Shown here piece by piece: positions 13,339 through 20,305 of a stretch of DNA of 64,000 nucleotides (position 1 is its first letter; every line of letters begins with the position of its first letter). The stretch covers positions 6,782-70,781 of the forward strand of contig JALGUJ010000010.1 of assembly GCA_029820945.1 (NCBI GenBank), in the 5' to 3' direction. The notes below the pieces were generated by a model that was not told the DNA's origin, ran no database searches, and saw only the letters and a list, made by a program, of their open reading frames with translations. The DNA is from Candidatus Zipacnadia bacterium. GTDB lineage: Bacteria > Armatimonadota > Zipacnadia > Zipacnadales > UBA5352. The position numbers and the translations under genes are program-made.

Positions 13339-15288
13339 ATGACGGACGCGGGCGAGCCCGGGCACAGGCTGACGAGAGCGACCGTAGAGCCGCCGACGGC
13401 CATGGCCGGCGTGCGGGACACGTGGACCGTGAGCTTCGCCGGGCTGGAGGTGCCGGAGGGTGGCGTCGTGCGCCTGCGCATCGCCGGAGGGCGCGATAAC
13501 CACAGCGACTGGACCCCGCCGCAGGCGGACGATCCAGACGCGGACGAATACGTGACCGCGAGCTGCTCGGGCGAGGCGGATCTCCAGGTGAGCGTCCCGC
13601 CCTTCGAGGAGGTGCGCGCCACCGCCGTGGACATGGTCGTGGAGGGGGCGCCGCTATGCGCGGGCGACACAATCGCCGTCACGCTCGGCGACAGGTCCGG
13701 CGACGGCGATGGCTCCACGCCGCAGACCTTCTCGCAGTCGGGCAAGCGCTTCGACGTGTTCGTGGCCGGGCCGCCCGCGCAGGACGAGGAGCGGCAGTTC
13801 GCGCGGGCCGAAGGAGCGCCGACTATCGACGTCACCGGCGGCCCCATGGACCGGCTGCGGGTGCTTGGCCCGCCGACGGTGCCGGCCGGTAAGAAGTTCG
13901 CCATCGTGATCAAGGCCGAGGACGTGCACGGGAACGTGGCCTCGCTCTACCAGGGCGAGTTGAACGTGGAGATCACCGACGAGGTGGTCAGCGGCCCCGA
14001 TGAGGCCGAGTTCGGCGGCCCCGGCGGCGGGGTGATCATGGTCGAGGGCTTCAAGGCCCTCAGCCGTGGACTGGTGCGCATCATCGCCATCGACCGCGTC
14101 AGCGAGATCAAGTACGTGAGCAACCCGATCCTGGTGACGCGCTACGACCAGTCACAGCTCTACTTCGGCGTGATCCACGGACACACGAGCTGCTCCGACG
14201 GCACCGGCTCGGTCGAGGACTACTACGCGTGCATGCGCGACGACAACCGCCTGGACTTCGGCGCGGTCGGCGACCATGACCACGACTGGGAGACGACCGA
14301 CGATGACTGGGCCGAGATCCAGCGCGTGACCGCCGAGAGCAACGAGGACGGCGAGTTCGTGACGCTACTCGGCTACGAGTGGGCCAAGTGGCGCCGCGAC
14401 GGGGCGGGCGACCGCAACGTCTACTACGATGCCGACGACCAGCCGATGTACCGCTCGGGCGACGAGCACTACCCCACGCCGCCGCATCTGTTCGATGCGC
14501 TGGGCGACCACCGGGCCATAGTCATCCCGCACCACTCCGCGAGCACCGGCAACTTCTGCGACTGGTCCGACCACGATCCGGGGAAGGAGCGCCTGGTCGA
14601 GATCTACTCGGTCTGGGGCAGCTCCGAACGCTCTGTCCACGACGGCAACCCGTTCCCGATGCGGCCCAGCGGCCTGCCTCCATGCGGGTTCGCCGACGTG
14701 CCGATGGACAGCGGCGAGCGACCCGAGGGCTTCGTGCAGCGCGCGCTGGCGATGGACCGCCGGCTCGGCTTCGTGGGCGGTGGCGACGACCACCTGGGGC
14801 ACCCCGGCGATCCCATCGCCACAGGCGCCGAGCCCTTCCGCTACCGCGACGGGCTGATGGGCGTCTGGGCGCAGGAGCTGACGCGTGAGGCGATCTTCCA
14901 GGCCATGTACGACCGGCACACCTACGCGACCACCGGCACGCGCATGATCGTGCTCTTCCAGGTCGCGGGCGCGTTCATGGGCGACGAGATCGAGGCCTCC
15001 GCGAGCCCTGAGCTAGCCGACGCGCGCACCATCGAGGGCTTCATCGCAGGCGAGGCCAAGCTCGCGCAGGTCGAGGTCGTGCGCAACAACGAGGTCGTGC
15101 ACAGCTTCCGCCCGGAGAGCTCGGAGACCACCTTCGAGTGGACGGACGAGGAGCCGCTGGAGGGCCTGGCCCTCACCCCGTGTGACGAGGGCGAGCCGGA
15201 GTTCGTGTTCTACTACCTGCGCGTGCTGCAGTCCGACGGCGAGATGGCCTGGGCCAGCCCGGTCTGGCTGCTGCTGCCGCAGGACTGA
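13339..15288 (+). CDS. DUF3604 / PHP-like metal-dependent hydrolase with an N-terminal beta-sandwich region
   Basis: Motifs GVIHGHTSCSDG, GDHDHDW, IPHHSAS and GGGDDHLGHPG resemble PHP/DUF3604 metal-binding motifs. Paralog at 23662-25602. Confidence 0.65.
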   Translation: MTDAGEPGHRLTRATVEPPTAMAGVRDTWTVSFAGLEVPEGGVVRLRIAGGRDNHSDWTPPQADDPDADEYVTASCSGEADLQVSVPPFEEVRATAVDMVVEGAPLCAGDTIAVTLGDRSGDGDGSTPQTFSQSGKRFDVFVAGPPAQDEERQFARAEGAPTIDVTGGPMDRLRVLGPPTVPAGKKFAIVIKAEDVHGNVASLYQGELNVEITDEVVSGPDEAEFGGPGGGVIMVEGFKALSRGLVRIIAIDRVSEIKYVSNPILVTRYDQSQLYFGVIHGHTSCSDGTGSVEDYYACMRDDNRLDFGAVGDHDHDWETTDDDWAEIQRVTAESNEDGEFVTLLGYEWAKWRRDGAGDRNVYYDADDQPMYRSGDEHYPTPPHLFDALGDHRAIVIPHHSASTGNFCDWSDHDPGKERLVEIYSVWGSSERSVHDGNPFPMRPSGLPPCGFADVPMDSGERPEGFVQRALAMDRRLGFVGGGDDHLGHPGDPIATGAEPFRYRDGLMGVWAQELTREAIFQAMYDRHTYATTGTRMIVLFQVAGAFMGDEIEASASPELADARTIEGFIAGEAKLAQVEVVRNNEVVHSFRPESSETTFEWTDEEPLEGLALTPCDEGEPEFVFYYLRVLQSDGEMAWASPVWLLLPQD

Positions 15289-15326
15289 GCGCTGGTCGCC
15301 AGCGGCGTGCTCCGCTCGTCCCGCGC

Positions 15327-16055
15327 TCAGCTCTCTGACAAGCTCCCCGGGACCCGCAGCCCGTGCGCGCGCAGCAGGTCCTCATCGCTCAGGATCTTCC
15401 GCACCGGCCCGGTCGCGTGGATACGGCCCTCGTCGAGGATCGCGACCTGGTCGCAGAGCTGCAGCACCATCTCGAGATCGTGGCTGGCGATGATTCTCGA
15501 CTGCGGGAGGGCCGACAGCAGCCCAATGATCGCCTCCCGGCCCTCCGGGTCGAGCGCCATGACCGGCTCGTCGATCACCAGCAGCTCGGGCTCCATGGCG
15601 AGCACCGTGGCCAGCGCCACCCGGCGCATCTGCCCCGCCGAGAGGTGGTGCGGCGGGCGTTCGGCCAGGTGAGCGGCGCCCGCGGCCTCCAGCACCGCCA
15701 TCGCCCGCGCCCGCGCCTCCTCGGACGACAGCCCCAGGTTCAGCGGCCCGAAGCAGACGTCCTCAAGCGCGGTGGGCATGAAGAGCTGGTCCGCCGGGTC
15801 CTCGAAGACCAGCCCGACCGTCGCGCGCAGATCGTCGGCCGGCCAGTCCTCGACGGGGGTACCCCTCACGCGCACCGTACCCGAGCCGTGCAGGATGCCG
15901 TTGAGGTGCAGCAGCAGCGTGGACTTGCCCGCGCCATTCGGGCCGATCAGCCCCAGCGATCGCCCCTCCTCCAGCGTCAACGACACGCCCCTCAGTGCCT
16001 GCGTGCCGTCGGGCCAGGCGAAGTGCAGATCGTCGATCTCCAGCAGCGCCGTCAT
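15327..16055 (-). CDS. cbiO: ECF-transporter ATPase component (CbiO/EcfA type)
   Basis: Starts MTALLEIDDLHF. Walker A GPNGAGKST, signature LSAGQMRRV, Walker B LLVIDEP. The ATG overlaps the upstream gene's stop (ATGA). The rest of the 471-aa track ORF is an artefactual extension. Confidence 0.9.
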   Translation of the reverse strand: MTALLEIDDLHFAWPDGTQALRGVSLTLEEGRSLGLIGPNGAGKSTLLLHLNGILHGSGTVRVRGTPVEDWPADDLRATVGLVFEDPADQLFMPTALEDVCFGPLNLGLSSEEARARAMAVLEAAGAAHLAERPPHHLSAGQMRRVALATVLAMEPELLVIDEPVMALDPEGREAIIGLLSALPQSRIIASHDLEMVLQLCDQVAILDEGRIHATGPVRKILSDEDLLRAHGLRVPGSLSES

Positions 16056-16822
16056 GCCATGCCCACCCAGAGGAGGGCCGCCGAGAGCGCGATGAGCAGC
16101 GCGCCGACGGCCAGGTGGGTCGCCGGCACCGCTCCCTGCGAGAGGGTCGGCATGCGCCCGCGGTAGCCGCGCGCCACCATGGCCAGCCCGATGTGCTCGG
16201 CGCGCTCCACGGTGCGGACCATCAGGGTCGCGATCATGCTGGCGCCGACGCCGACATTCCGGCGGAGGCCCCGCACGTGACCGCGGGAGCGCCGTGCGGT
16301 GATCATGCGTGCCGCCTCCTCGCCCAACACCTGCAGGTAGGTCACGGCGAAGCCGGTGAGGGCGGTGAGCGTGCGGGGCACGTGAAGACTCTGGGCGGCG
16401 CGCAGGAGGTCCGCCGACGTCGTGGCGCCGGTCAGCAGCGTGGCGGCCAGGAGGGCCAGCAGGCACTTGCCGCCCGCGGAGACGTAGACCGTCGCCGCCG
16501 CGCGCGACAGCACGAGGGCACCAAGATGCATCGCGTCGGTCTCGCCTGCCGGCGCCACGAAGCCCACCGCCACCGCGCCCAGCACCAGGAACGGCGCCAG
16601 CACCGCGGTGCGCCGGGCGATCCAGCCGGGGGGCAGCCGCGAGAGCGCCGCGATGGCCGCAAGGATGGCCGCGTGACAGAGCAGCAGCCACGTGCGTGCG
16701 AGCGGCACGGCGAGAACCGTCGCCGCGATGGTGACCGCGCACACGAGCTTCACCCGCGCATCAAGCCGGTGCACCGGCGAGTCCAGGTGAGCCCACCTGT
16801 CGAGCAGGTCGTGTGCGAGCAT
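16052..16822 (-). CDS. cbiQ: ECF-transporter transmembrane T component (CbiQ/EcfT type)
   Basis: Starts MLAHDLLDRW..SPVHRLDARVKL. Multi-TM protein with a C-terminal ARGYRG motif typical of CbiQ/EcfT. Translationally coupled to cbiO. Confidence 0.85.
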   Translation of the reverse strand: MLAHDLLDRWAHLDSPVHRLDARVKLVCAVTIAATVLAVPLARTWLLLCHAAILAAIAALSRLPPGWIARRTAVLAPFLVLGAVAVGFVAPAGETDAMHLGALVLSRAAATVYVSAGGKCLLALLAATLLTGATTSADLLRAAQSLHVPRTLTALTGFAVTYLQVLGEEAARMITARRSRGHVRGLRRNVGVGASMIATLMVRTVERAEHIGLAMVARGYRGRMPTLSQGAVPATHLAVGALLIALSAALLWVGMA

Positions 16823-16994
16823 GACTGTTGGCGGACACGGCAGGCTGGTACCATGCAAGGCCCCCGCACGGCCCGGCGGATGCAACATCCCCCCCCGCCG
16901 GGCATCCGCGCGGAGGCCCTGCACAACGGCGATCGTCCGCGTGAGGCACGGACCGTCGGGTTTAGCTTCCTCCCGGACGAGCAGATGCAATGGC

Positions 16995-17603
16995 CTACGC
17001 GGCCGTCCGCGGCTCTCCCCGCCACCTCCTCTCCACCGCAGCAACCACGGACGGCACGGCGATGAGCTGCAGGATCAGGCCGGGAACCGCAGTCAAGGTC
17101 GCGGCCAGCACGTAGGGCATCGGCTGGCGCATGGACTCGGGGATCGCCGCCGACAGGTCGGGCGGCAGCAGGCTCACCGCCAGCAGCACCACTACTCCCA
17201 TGACCACGCGCCCACCAAGCAGCGTCAGGATCGTGGCCGGGACCACGTGCAGCCTCAGCCGTCGGTGCAGCAGGCTGGCGACCGCGCCCATCGTCGCCAG
17301 CTCCGCGACCATCAGCGGGAGCACCGGCATCACCGGCGGCATCCCCGTCAGCGCCGAGGACAGCAGGGGCGTGAGCAGACCCACCGCGGCGGCGATCGGC
17401 GGCGAGACCAGCATCCCGCACACCAGCACGGGCAGGTACATGGGCAGCAGCACGGCGCCCAGCTTCCCGCCACCGAACGCGTGGAAGGCGATCGGGAAGA
17501 CGATCCCCAGCGCGATGAAAAGCCCGCCCAGGCTCAGCTCCCTGGCCCAGGCGACCTCCTCGGCGACGGTGTGCGACCGCTTCTCGGCCGTCTGTGCACC
17601 CAT
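16995..17603 (-). CDS. ECF-transporter substrate-capture (S) component, substrate unknown; not CbiM/NikM-like
   Basis: About 200 aa, 5-6 TM segments, motif HAFGGGKLGAVLLPMYLPVLVCGMLVSP as in generic ECF S components. The N-terminus is [11 protein letters not shown], with no MHIPDG-type metal-binding N-terminus. Its start overlaps the pseudopilin stop by 1 nt. Confidence 0.7.
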   Translation of the reverse strand: MGAQTAEKRSHTVAEEVAWARELSLGGLFIALGIVFPIAFHAFGGGKLGAVLLPMYLPVLVCGMLVSPPIAAAVGLLTPLLSSALTGMPPVMPVLPLMVAELATMGAVASLLHRRLRLHVVPATILTLLGGRVVMGVVVLLAVSLLPPDLSAAIPESMRQPMPYVLAATLTAVPGLILQLIAVPSVVAAVERRWRGEPRTAA

Positions 17604-18277
17604 CAGACCTCATGCTCCGTGTCCCAGTAATCGCGCCAGACGTCCTCGGGAACGGGAGCGGCGTCCGCGGGGATCACGGTCCCGTTCTCTTCCCTCTCGG
17701 TGTTCGAGTGGTACTGCTCGGGCTTGAGCCACTTGACGTGCGCGTCGCCGAACAGCACGTTCGAGCCGTCGTTGTGGATGCGGCAGACCGCCCAGGCGTG
17801 CAGCGAGCCGCCGCGATGCACAGCCCTGTCGCCGTTCGGCGGCCCGGAGACGCAGCGGTCCCACTCGACCGTGAGGATCTTGTGGCTCGGGCTCTGGATC
17901 TGGGCCCGCGACCGCATCTGGAAGCCCGCCACGGCGCTCCCCGTCGAGGTCTCGCTGTCCATCAGCCCGCCGTTGTAGCCGTGACCGTAGAACCACGGGA
18001 GCTCCCGCCGGCTCGGGCACTTGAACAGCTCGCGGTTCTTCATGTACGGGTCCAGCTTCGTCTTCCACTCAAAGGTGGGCGGGTACATCTCGTCATAGTC
18101 TGACGTGTACATCTCGAAGGCCATCCCCTGCTGCTTCATGTTGCTCAGGCAGGTGATCGCGCGCGCCTTCTCGCGGGCCCGCGCGAAGACCGGGAACAGG
18201 ATCGCCGCCAGTATGGCGATGATCGCGATGACCACGAGAAGCTCGATGAGCGTGAAGCCACGCGGTGACATCAGCAT
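17603..18277 (-). CDS. prepilin-type N-terminal cleavage/methylation domain protein, H-X9-DG-like family (pseudopilin-like)
   Basis: N-terminus [32 protein letters not shown]-terminal motif [17 protein letters not shown]. Start is 18277 or 18271. Confidence 0.85.
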
Positions 18278-18285
18278 GCCCCCAT

Positions 18286-18312
18286 GTACTACGATTGGCA
18301 AAATCGTGCTAC
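18286..18312. promoter_or_regulatory. AT-rich imperfect palindrome, candidate operator or intercistronic hairpin
   Basis: GTAct-ACGATT-GGCAA-AATCGT-gcTAC. It lies between the nikR stop (18335) and the pseudopilin start (18277). Confidence 0.4.
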
Positions 18313-18334
18313 CCACGGGCAACAAAAGAGCGCA

Positions 18335-18796
18335 CTACTGCTGAACGGCCGTGCGGGTCAACTGCCCGTGCTTGACGCCGCGTGCGCTGATCATGCGATC
18401 GGCCAGGCGGCGGACCTGCTCGGCGGCCCCCCGCGCCACGATGACCTCGATGCAGTTATGGTGGTCCAGGTGTACGTGAGTGTTACAGATGACCGTAGGC
18501 TCGGCATCGTGCTGCAGCGCCGTGAGCTTCGCAACAACTCCAGGCACGTGGTGGTCGTAGACCAGCGTGATGGTGCCGACCACCTCACCGTCGGGGGCCT
18601 CCCACTGGCGGTTCACGAGGAAGGCCCGGGCCATGTCCCGCACGGCCTCGGAGCGGTTGGCGTACCCCGCCTCCTCTATCGCCTGATCGAGCTGCTGGAG
18701 CAGCTCGCGGTTCATTGAGACGCCGAATCGCTCGAGCGGCACAGCCAACACTCCCGTAGCACATTCCGGCGAAGCGTAACACACCGACCCGCCCAC
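18335..18796 (-). CDS. nikR: nickel-responsive transcriptional regulator NikR (ribbon-helix-helix plus C-terminal metal-binding domain)
   Basis: RHH region RFGVSMNRELLQQLDQAIEEAGYANRSEAVRDMARAFL. The C-terminal domain has histidine/cysteine metal ligands (VYDHH...HVHLDHHNCIEV). The true start may lie downstream of 18796, for example at a GTG. Confidence 0.85.
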   Translation of the reverse strand: MGGSVCYASPECATGVLAVPLERFGVSMNRELLQQLDQAIEEAGYANRSEAVRDMARAFLVNRQWEAPDGEVVGTITLVYDHHVPGVVAKLTALQHDAEPTVICNTHVHLDHHNCIEVIVARGAAEQVRRLADRMISARGVKHGQLTRTAVQQ

Positions 18797-18814
18797 GTCA
18801 AGTCACGGGTCGGC

Positions 18815-20305
18815 TCAGCCGCCGCCCGTGACTCGCCGGATGAGACGCCGCACCGCGTCTCGCTCGGCGGAAGGCAGCGACCACCAGACGAGTCCCCAGC
18901 CAAGCGCCATGACCGCCACGAGCCCGGCGATGCCCGCGCCGGTCCGGCCCGTGAGCACCGCTGCCGAGAAGGCTCCCAGAGCCAGCAGCCCCAGTATCCA
19001 GCCCGCACCGACGTGCAGGCGCAGCGCGGTCCGCGCCTCGGCGAACAGCACCAGGGTCATCAGCGTACCTGCGGCGAACTGCGCCAGGGCGGCGCCGAGA
19101 GCGCCGTGCGTAGGCACCAGGAGCAGATCGAGGCCGAGGATGAGCCCGACCAGCAGCGCGTTATTGACCAGCGCCAGCCGCGAGCGCCCGGCGAACATGA
19201 CCACGTGGTTGAGCAGGTAGAACATGCTCGCGGGCAGGATGTCGGCGGCCATCACGCGGATGGCCGGCACCGCCGGCGCGAAGTCCCTTCCGAACAGCCC
19301 GGACAGGGGCTCGGCGAGTGCGATCAGAGCGGCCGCGAGCGGCACGCCGGCCGCCACGATCAGCAGCGCCATCACCGCCGTGAGCCGTCCCAGCTCCGCG
19401 GAGTCCTCGCGCTGCAGCCTCGCGACCACGGGGTCCAGCGCCCAGGTGACGGAACGCACCAGCAGCACGCCGATGAACGACACCCGGAGCGCGGCCGCAA
19501 ACAGGCCCGTCTCCCCCGCTCCGGCCAGAATCCCCGTGAGGAGCAGTCCCAGGGAGCTGGAGGTGGAGATCACGAGCGTGGCGCCGGCGGCGGGCAGGCC
19601 GAAGGCCGCCAGCTCGCGCCTTCGGACGGCGGAGATACCGGCGTCGCGGCGTGGTGGCACCAGCCCCCGCACGAGGAGGACGGCGATGATCACCGCCACA
19701 CCAAGCCCCACAAGCCGCGCCACCACCGCCGACGCAACCGAGAGGCCGAGCACACCGAAGAGCACCACCAGCCCGAGCTGCAGGGAGGGGAGCACGATCT
19801 GCTGGGGGATCGCGCGCAGCTCCTGGCGGTCGAAGGCCTGTGCGGCCGAGACCAGCACGGTCAGCAGCACCCACAGCGGAACCGTGAGGGCGAAGAGGCG
19901 GATGATCGCGACCAGCTCGGCCCGTTCGAAGGCCCGGTTCGCCAGTGGTACCGCGGCGAGCGACAGCAGCGCCGCCGCGATCAGGCCCGACACCAGCGCC
20001 ACGCGCAGCGACCAGCCGAGCACTCCCGCGACGCCGGCGCGGTCCTGCTTCGCTCGGAGCGCCGGGATGGTGCGCACGATGGCGGCGTCCAGGCCCAGCA
20101 TGCCGGCGACCATCAGGTAGCGGGAGAGCGGGAAGCCGACGGAGTAGAGGCCGAGGCCATCGCGTCCGAAGAGCCGCCCAAGGGCCACGACCTGCGCGAA
20201 GGCCAGGCCCGCGGCCACGAGCTGGGCCGCCCCCGAGATGCCCGCGCCCCTGAGCACCGTGCCCAGGGGACCATGGGCGCCATCACCGGTTGGTTCGTCG
20301 CTCAC
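18815..20305 (-). CDS. MOP-superfamily oligosaccharide/polysaccharide flippase (Wzx-like)
   Basis: About 496 aa, very hydrophobic, with about 12-14 predicted TM segments. Composition and length are typical of Wzx/MurJ-like polysaccharide biosynthesis proteins. GTG start. Confidence 0.7.
   Translation of the reverse strand: MSDEPTGDGAHGPLGTVLRGAGISGAAQLVAAGLAFAQVVALGRLFGRDGLGLYSVGFPLSRYLMVAGMLGLDAAIVRTIPALRAKQDRAGVAGVLGWSLRVALVSGLIAAALLSLAAVPLANRAFERAELVAIIRLFALTVPLWVLLTVLVSAAQAFDRQELRAIPQQIVLPSLQLGLVVLFGVLGLSVASAVVARLVGLGVAVIIAVLLVRGLVPPRRDAGISAVRRRELAAFGLPAAGATLVISTSSSLGLLLTGILAGAGETGLFAAALRVSFIGVLLVRSVTWALDPVVARLQREDSAELGRLTAVMALLIVAAGVPLAAALIALAEPLSGLFGRDFAPAVPAIRVMAADILPASMFYLLNHVVMFAGRSRLALVNNALLVGLILGLDLLLVPTHGALGAALAQFAAGTLMTLVLFAEARTALRLHVGAGWILGLLALGAFSAAVLTGRTGAGIAGLVAVMALGWGLVWWSLPSAERDAVRRLIRRVTGGG

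Follow-up and report, generated by a model that had tools for sequence, protein, structure and literature searches.

We analysed 64,000 nt of DNA (the window) from the Armatimonadota member Candidatus Zipacnadia bacterium (assembly GCA_029820945.1, contig JALGUJ010000010.1, positions 6,782 to 70,781 of the forward strand). Between positions 15327 and 18796, the minus strand of this window carries the regulator gene nikR, a gene for a type IV pilin-like H-X9-DG/DUF1559 protein and the genes for the S, T and A components of an energy-coupling factor (ECF) transporter. This locus probably encodes a NikR-repressed nickel ECF importer with an S component of a new family and an extracytoplasmic accessory that has a pilin anchor. 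NikR-controlled ECF importers are a known kind of system; this one is distinguished by its new S family, its pilin-like accessory and, in relatives, FmdE-like partners. The source genome, assembled from a metagenome, comprises 203 contigs that total 5.35 Mb, at 90.7% completeness. Genes were identified by open reading frame (ORF) listing, translation and searches with Pfam and NCBIfam profiles at their curated cut-offs. The S family was sought in 401 sampled Armatimonadota genomes and found in 84, including 13 of the 13 other genomes of the source's own family; the loci of 78 carriers were fetched and classified.

ORFs, translations and profile matches bear out the original prediction of five co-oriented minus-strand genes in the order nikR, prepilin-type gene, S, T and A. 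When the DNA is read directly, the pilin stop codon (TGA) and the S start codon (ATG) share a single base at 17603, giving the TGATG overlap first described, and positions 16052-16055 (ATGA) contain both the stop of T and the start of A, again as described. The depiction of these genes as a single string was upheld with regard to their order, but not entirely with regard to their expression: a gap of 172 nt (16823-16994) separates S from T, and nikR and the pilin gene possess separate promoter-operator regions, such that nikR and pilin-S-T-A are probably two transcription units. The pilin gene does form a unit with the ECF genes, overlapping S and sharing one NikR-type operator with it; it is nikR that probably stands apart. 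In agreement with the prediction that no CbiN, NikK or NikL is present, neither a small two-helix CbiN/NikN gene nor a NikK and NikL pair occurs among the ORFs of 15327-18796.

The nikR gene (18335-18742, minus strand) encodes 135 aa from a GTG codon at 18742. Although the longest ORF extends to 18796, this GTG is likely to be the true start since 135 aa matches the length of orthologues. The protein matches the NCBIfam NikR model NF003381 at 181.7 bits (cut-off 105), together with NikR_C (PF08753, 107.8 bits) and RHH_1 (PF01402, 26.1 bits), and is the only NikR_C match in the source genome. Alignment with Pyrococcus horikoshii NikR (2bj1; E=3e-40) places residues H96, H107, H109 and C115 (numbered in the frame from 18796) opposite positions 78, 89, 91 and 97. 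On the basis of NikR structures, we take these three histidines and one cysteine to be the high-affinity nickel ligands.

Two NikR-type operators conforming to a 27-bp consensus, GTARCAC-N13-GTARCAC, accompany these genes. Operator 1 (GTGTTAC-N13-GTGCTAC, 18756-18782, minus strand), in which the consensus is read as its reverse complement, overlaps the -10 element of the nikR promoter, TACGCT at 18773-18778. The -35 box of that promoter, TTGACG (18796-18801, minus strand; a sequence inference), lies 17 nt before TACGCT. Operator 2 (GTAGCAC-N13-GTAGTAC, 18286-18312, minus strand) precedes the pilin-ECF operon. This pair is kept in 12 of 12 distinct loci of the source family, one operator lying before nikR over the -10 box and the other between nikR and the pilin gene. 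A TTGAC box occupies the same place in all 12 orthologous nikR upstream regions, with a TACGNT -10 box 17 nt on. The proposed promoters derive from this comparative alignment of orthologous upstream regions and not from consensus scanning; a sigma-70 consensus scan of 15100-19000 gave no match, and no convincing terminators were found.

The genome-wide prediction of NikR operators proposed at the outset was carried out by scanning both strands of the whole 5.35-Mb assembly with a matrix of 22 sites drawn from other genomes only, the genome's own sites being excluded. The two window sites scored far above all others: operator 2, before the pilin gene, reached 35.1 bits and operator 1, before nikR, 31.0 bits, while the best unrelated site in the genome reached 13.2 bits. 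Their half-sites and 13-bp spacing are equal to those of the predicted NikR signal of delta-proteobacteria, GTGTTAC-N13/14-GTAACAC, the half-sites of which have been seen in more than one orientation (PMC545781). NikR is presumably the protein bound at both operators.

In most other Armatimonadota lineages a NikR-type motif precedes the first gene of the operon, including at loci without a nearby nikR. Where a receptor, lipoprotein or DUF4198 gene replaces the pilin gene, the motif precedes that replacement. A site of at least 16 bits lies upstream of S in 45 of the 78 loci, and several of the others have flanks too short. The placement of nikR itself varies, with at least four arrangements on record: it may precede the pilin gene or the receptor gene, or it may follow A, either in the same orientation or converging with it. 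This repeated and independent linkage of nikR in differing arrangements is strong evidence of a functional tie. In five genomes of family f38 (L087, L093, L083, L081 and L090), a conserved NikR-type motif of 23-26 bits is situated inside the S gene, some 355-390 nt in, and not ahead of it. Its target might be the FmdE-like gene that follows, which it could drive or control.

The S gene (16995-17603, minus strand; 202 aa) begins with the ATG at 17603, the sole start codon before residue 55 of the frame. Its product matches PF12822 at 34.1 bits (cut-off 30.7) and no NCBIfam model. An AlphaFold (AF2) model built with 40 homologues displayed six main helices at a predicted local distance difference test score (pLDDT) of 93.9. 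The best matches of this model among solved structures were YkoE, RibU, PanT, HmpT, FolT, ThiT and BioY, with TM-scores of 0.5-0.63 and identities of 12-19%. No CbiM/NikM chain was found among these best structural matches, and a search of the S sequence against solved structures returned nothing. Assignment to CbiM/NikM was rejected: PF01891 has no match in S or in the genome, the N-terminus (MGAQTAEK) lacks Met-His, and there are six main helices, not seven. Thus, with PF12822 as its sole profile match and a six-helix vitamin-type fold in the model, S answers to its initial description as a non-CbiM, generic vitamin-type component.

The recommended profile search of S against ECF S families was also performed and led to no defined vitamin family. 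None of the S relatives scored above an NCBIfam cut-off, the best result being 41.8 bits on a folate-family model with a cut-off of 60 (no NiaX model was among those tested). An Rfam scan, run permissively on the locus in the window and on five related ones, revealed no riboswitch before any S gene; two tRNAs and a fluoride riboswitch without relation to S were all that it matched. Vitamin-type S components (YkoE 5edl, RibU 5kbw, PanT 6zg3, FolT 7nnt, ThiT and BioY) share the six-helix fold and PF12822 with the window protein but differ from it in their low sequence identity, in its possession of its own T and A genes, and in its NikR-type operator, which stands in place of a riboswitch or vitamin regulator. 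We conclude that S belongs to an undescribed ECF S family that is neither CbiM/NikM nor a curated vitamin family. An alignment of this family (A2) revealed the invariant residues H41, L53-P54-M55, P58, S82, T86 and M88-P89-P90, with E101 and Q179 near-invariant. Some database relatives of S (P0090, P0095, P0124 and P0067) are fused to a TM1506/DUF1893 (PF08973) or FmdE (PF02663) domain; such fusions suggest cytoplasmic acceptor domains for the transported substrate.

The CbiQ-like T component (16052-16822, minus strand; 256 aa from an ATG at 16822) matches PF02361 CbiQ at 82.9 bits and TIGR02454 at 109.1 bits, slightly below the cut-off of 111.8. The CbiO-like ATPase, or A component (15327-16055, minus strand; 242 aa), matches PF00005 ABC_tran at 101 bits, and its best NCBIfam matches are ECF ATPase and CbiO models, all below their equivalog cut-offs. 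A protein of S fold with adjacent T and A genes of its own characterises a group I ECF transporter, and this is the organisation found here. The 172-nt S-T spacer (16823-16994, minus strand) is single-copy in the genome, peculiar to it and absent from related loci, most of which show an S-T gap of 10-40 nt or one filled by an FmdE-like gene. A decayed FmdE gene or a repeat was considered and rejected on the grounds of no similarity, a single copy and no retention in relatives. The spacer also has no match in Rfam, and we regard it as a genome-specific insertion.

The arrangement may be compared with the established nickel and cobalt systems NikMNQO/CbiMNQO and NikKMLQO (PMC545781; NikM2 structure PMC3945884). 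In common with these, the window locus possesses a group I module with a CbiQ-like T component and a single CbiO-like ATPase gene, the half-sites of the 27-bp NikR signal, a small extracytoplasmic accessory within the operon and a genome encoding [NiFe]-hydrogenase. Conversely, its S component is not CbiM/NikM by profile, N-terminus or number of helices, CbiN/NikN, NikK and NikL are lacking from the window, and the accessory is a type IV pilin-like H-X9-DG protein.

The gene for this accessory (17603-18271, minus strand; 222 aa) starts with an ATG at 18271, 7 nt upstream of which lies a GGGGG stretch. The protein begins with a leader, MSPRG, followed by FTLIELL, and matches PF07963 N_methyl (34.5 bits), the N-terminal part of PF07596 DUF1559 (30.5 bits) and TIGR04294 H-X9-DG (24.3 bits), all above cut-off. 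Its version of the H-X9-DG motif reads H-x9-DA-H. Identity as the major pseudopilin GspG (TIGR01710) was rejected, the score being 36.9 bits against a cut-off of 88.85 and confined to the N-terminal helix. In an alignment of 19 orthologues of 59-85% identity (A1), the G/F...E5 processing signature is invariant, as are C41, C85, E136, D138, C140, H166, D176, H178 and H188.

The window protein has the N-terminal cleavage/methylation motif, the DUF1559 start and the H-x9-D[GA]-H motif of the general H-X9-DG/DUF1559 family of Planctomycetota, Verrucomicrobiota and Armatimonadota (TIGR04294, PF07596). It differs from that family at large in forming a distinct orthogroup, with a C-terminal extension of about 35 residues (YHS...WR.YWDT) and a fixed site before S under a NikR-type operator. 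Named database relatives of this ECF-linked orthogroup are all from Armatimonadota. Within the source genome, which contains about 52 pilin-like ORFs with GFTLIELL (44 of them with H-x9-D[GA]), a profile of the orthologues matched the window pilin over its full length at 410 bits, while other pilin-like genes reached at most 163 bits and lacked the C-terminal part. The genome encodes two prepilin-peptidase homologues and has only one match to a TonB-dependent receptor, a balance against the roughly 52 pilins that is unusual for a diderm. Between orders, pilin sequences retain 57-62% identity and S sequences 35-47%, which makes the pilin the more conserved of the two. The predicted structure of the pilin had a modest pLDDT of 69, and only its N-terminal helix matched solved structures (PilA4 and PAK pilin). 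Co-folding of the pilin with S, using alignments A1 and A2, returned a score of 0.00 and gives no verdict either way. A literature search retrieved no functional study of DUF1559 or H-X9-DG proteins.

It had been asked whether the pilin-S-T-A adjacency recurs in related genomes, and it does, in 41 of the 78 Armatimonadota genomes with a classified locus. In these 41, which represent 11 families, the orthologous pilin gene lies directly upstream of S. Further pilin variants occur elsewhere: a different H-X9-DG pilin occupies the position in 9 genomes (2 families), and a lipoprotein together with a different pilin in 7 genomes (1 family). A TonB-dependent receptor (Plug and barrel, with TonB or ExbB nearby at two loci) is found directly upstream of S in 9 genomes from 5 families, and neither pilin nor receptor in another 9 genomes from 3 families. 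In the remaining 3 genomes the pilin gene follows the transporter genes, or too little upstream sequence is available for a judgement. One order with a downstream pilin gene, S-T-DUF4198-pilin, belongs to the lineage of locus L053, the sole sister lineage with a DUF4198 gene. The stop-start overlap, or a very short gap, between pilin and S is kept across families, and the pair survives where the flanks differ completely (L006-L008).

Several further features of these operons were observed. A class I S-adenosylmethionine (SAM)-dependent methyltransferase gene follows A in all of the TonB-receptor-type operons (for instance L057:9361-10011 and L058:5094-5687), and in one pilin-type lineage a SAM methyltransferase gene sits between S and T (L006:6800-7570). 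In family f30 (L048, L050, L056 and L076) the operon opens with a putative lipoprotein of about 450 aa with no clear Pfam family (L048:5238-6593), preceded by a NikR-type site. The second gene encodes a 227-aa pilin without H-X9-DG that ends in ...GIIVRLSDGR.SP (L048:6598-7281). Close relatives of the source (L002-L005; compare window positions 18815-20305) keep sat-cysC-phosphodiesterase genes upstream and DUF3604 and recD2 genes downstream, and distant relatives do not. Immediately upstream of nikR in the window is a gene for a Wzx-like flippase, which is not present in L002 or L005.

Two types of neighbouring protein connect this S family with metals. At 51 of the 78 loci S has an FmdE-like gene as its neighbour (for example L043:7867-8286 and L061:6758-7213), and in some of the database relatives, as noted, the two are fused. 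This gene encodes a protein of approximately 140 aa with the motif FHGHxGP followed by PPSC...TGC, and is located directly after S, or before S in one family. The FmdE core domain binds zinc or nickel through two histidines and two cysteines, and its genes mostly lie beside those of metal-ion transporters (PMC2954224). The recurrence of S with FmdE suggests that FmdE-like proteins may serve as cytoplasmic metal acceptors. The operon of the window is without an FmdE-like gene and FmdE homologues are found on contigs C106 and C173 of the source genome; the source family has lost the gene from the operon. DUF4198 proteins are periplasmic capture proteins for nickel or zinc, with TonB receptor and NikR genes as neighbours; one DUF4198 protein, IsDUF4198, binds nickel with a Kd of 18 nM (PMC12537917), and Zcp is a further DUF4198 periplasmic capture protein (PMC12663993). 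DUF4198 proteins and NikR-regulated TonB-dependent receptors resemble the pilin in being extracytoplasmic and NikR-linked and in occurring, in sister lineages, at its position in the operon or close by. They differ from it in fold, share no sequence similarity with it and are both absent from the window.

With regard to the need for nickel, the source genome encodes a group-3-like [NiFe]-hydrogenase with large, small and diaphorase-like subunits. CbiM, NiCoT, HupE/UreJ and urease were not found in the assembly, although at 90.7% completeness this leaves their absence unproven.

The original prediction had offered two possibilities: a new metal-capture arrangement with the pilin as accessory, or control by NikR of the uptake of a different substrate. 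The former is clearly favoured, by the published NikR half-sites, by the exchange of the pilin for a TonB-dependent receptor or DUF4198 protein, and by the linkage of FmdE-like proteins to S; the latter is disfavoured. Nickel as the substrate, and a pilin-like protein that touches S or binds metal, are nonetheless what we infer from gene content and conservation.

A mechanism can be envisaged for such a NikR-repressed nickel importer. When nickel is ample, Ni-NikR would occupy both operators and block the promoters of nikR and of pilin-S-T-A. When nickel is scarce, the pilin-S-T-A unit would be expressed, with translational coupling fixing the ratio of pilin to S. In view of the G/F...E5 signature and the prepilin-peptidase homologues, the pilin would be processed, after which its hydrophobic helix would keep it in the inner membrane or it would be assembled into a short pseudopilus. 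The globular domain of the pilin, with the invariant His, Cys, Asp and Glu residues, would collect periplasmic nickel and hand it to S. S would capture Ni or a small nickel complex and topple on the CbiQ-like T component, driven by a homodimer of the CbiO-like ATPase. The pilin would in this way do the job performed in other nickel systems by CbiN/NikN, NikK/NikL, DUF4198 proteins or TonB-dependent receptors. That other lineages have a lipoprotein, a DUF4198 protein or a TonB-dependent receptor where the pilin would be argues for a role in extracytoplasmic supply, and the single TonB-dependent-receptor match in the source genome makes a different solution to the supply step plausible. The substrate could be Ni2+ or a small nickel complex, and a chelate is a real possibility in view of the vitamin-type fold of S and the TonB-dependent receptors of sister lineages.

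Several observations weigh against nickel import by this arrangement, foremost among them the relatives of S outside the phylum, which are the main reason for our caution over the substrate. The closest of these are solitary S components from Firmicutes, approximately 40-50% identical, one of which carries the source label 'niacin transporter'. Their neighbours include tgt, pntAB or a NadN-like nucleotidase gene, and no NikR-type site was present at the Firmicutes loci examined. Such relatives are a hint that some members of the S family transport organic compounds. The His, Met, Ser, Thr and Glu residues invariant in S are common to the Firmicutes proteins, and no nickel-specific signature was found in S (alignment A2). 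To our knowledge, characterised nickel/cobalt S components are all CbiM/NikM proteins with an N-terminal Met-His site and none belongs to the fold family of the window S. As for the pilin, the globular part of its model (pLDDT 69) matched no solved metal-binding fold. Nine genomes carry S-FmdE-T without pilin, receptor or operator, from which it follows that the pilin is not obligatory. Finally, the evidence throughout is comparative genomics of metagenome-assembled genomes.

The same nine genomes would be accommodated by an alternative that we consider unlikely, in which the ECF transporter is a NikR-controlled nickel importer and the pilin a separate, co-regulated nickel factor, serving as a store or buffer of nickel in the periplasm or at the surface, or, as part of a pseudopilus, aiding the passage of nickel across the outer membrane without involvement of S. 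The two lineages with the pilin gene downstream of the transporter genes (L053 and L079) accord with such a separation. So does the use by sister lineages of an outer-membrane TonB-dependent receptor, which is not in direct contact with S, as well as the disparity in the source genome between a single match to such a receptor and some 52 pilin-like genes. A pilin acting independently of the transporter would not, however, be expected to keep its overlap or very short gap with S across families, nor would its orthogroup be expected beside S in every case examined. Its conservation, stronger than that of S itself, likewise speaks for a joint function.

Still less probable, in our estimation, is that the transporter imports an organic micronutrient or metal-organic cofactor (a niacin-related compound, a nickelophore or a tetrapyrrole), with NikR control reflecting some metabolic connection with nickel. 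The fold of S is of vitamin type, with YkoE, RibU, PanT and FolT as closest solved matches, and lends itself to this interpretation, as do the solitary Firmicutes relatives with the niacin-transporter label of one and the NAD-related neighbours of some. TonB-dependent receptors usually carry chelates and not free ions. Haem ECF transporters are known (PMC7299338). The conservation of a SAM methyltransferase in the receptor-type operons can be counted on the same side. On the other hand, neither a riboswitch nor a vitamin regulator accompanies these genes, the sole conserved control element being the NikR-type site; S reaches no curated vitamin S family; and the DUF4198 and FmdE associates bind metal ions directly. 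Furthermore, were the substrate a nickel chelate, this would be compatible with a NikR-repressed nickel importer.

That the gene order is merely inherited synteny without function, the pilin being one paralogue caught by chance between nikR and an unrelated ECF transporter, is highly implausible: the abundance of pilin-like genes makes chance neighbours possible and in close relatives the synteny does extend further, to sat-cysC on the upstream side and to DUF3604 and recD2 on the downstream side, but the pilin-S pair survives wholly different flanks (L006-L008) and spans 11 families while S has diverged to 35-47% identity, the operator always lies before the pilin gene and not before S, and the pilin beside S stands alone among the paralogues as an orthologue with a C-terminal extension of its own.

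ECF uptake of nickel has so far meant CbiM/NikM, and our literature search turned up no description of a non-CbiM nickel S component. If the reading of this locus as a NikR-repressed nickel importer is true, a second, unrelated S family under NikR would widen the routes of nickel acquisition and would explain the supply of nickel in hydrogenase-bearing Armatimonadota without known nickel transporters. Sister lineages in which a lipoprotein, a DUF4198 protein or a TonB-dependent receptor stands in for the pilin offer a natural experiment on the step by which a diderm supplies a transporter of the inner membrane. The source genome has some 50 H-X9-DG/DUF1559 proteins, and Planctomycetota and Verrucomicrobiota have far more; in these two phyla and in Armatimonadota, few paralogous families of unknown function are as large. 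We tentatively raise the idea, doubtful as it may be at present, that they are in general substrate-capture modules, anchored in the inner membrane or borne on a pseudopilus, that feed transporters of the cytoplasmic membrane and replace soluble binding proteins and TonB-dependent receptors in these phyla. The NikR-linked orthogroup would then be the first with an assignable substrate (nickel) and an assignable partner (the new S family, which would also work with FmdE-like metal acceptors in the cytoplasm). Through the present locus, one member of the H-X9-DG/DUF1559 proteins gains a testable function and a specific partner, and a very large family its first functional context.

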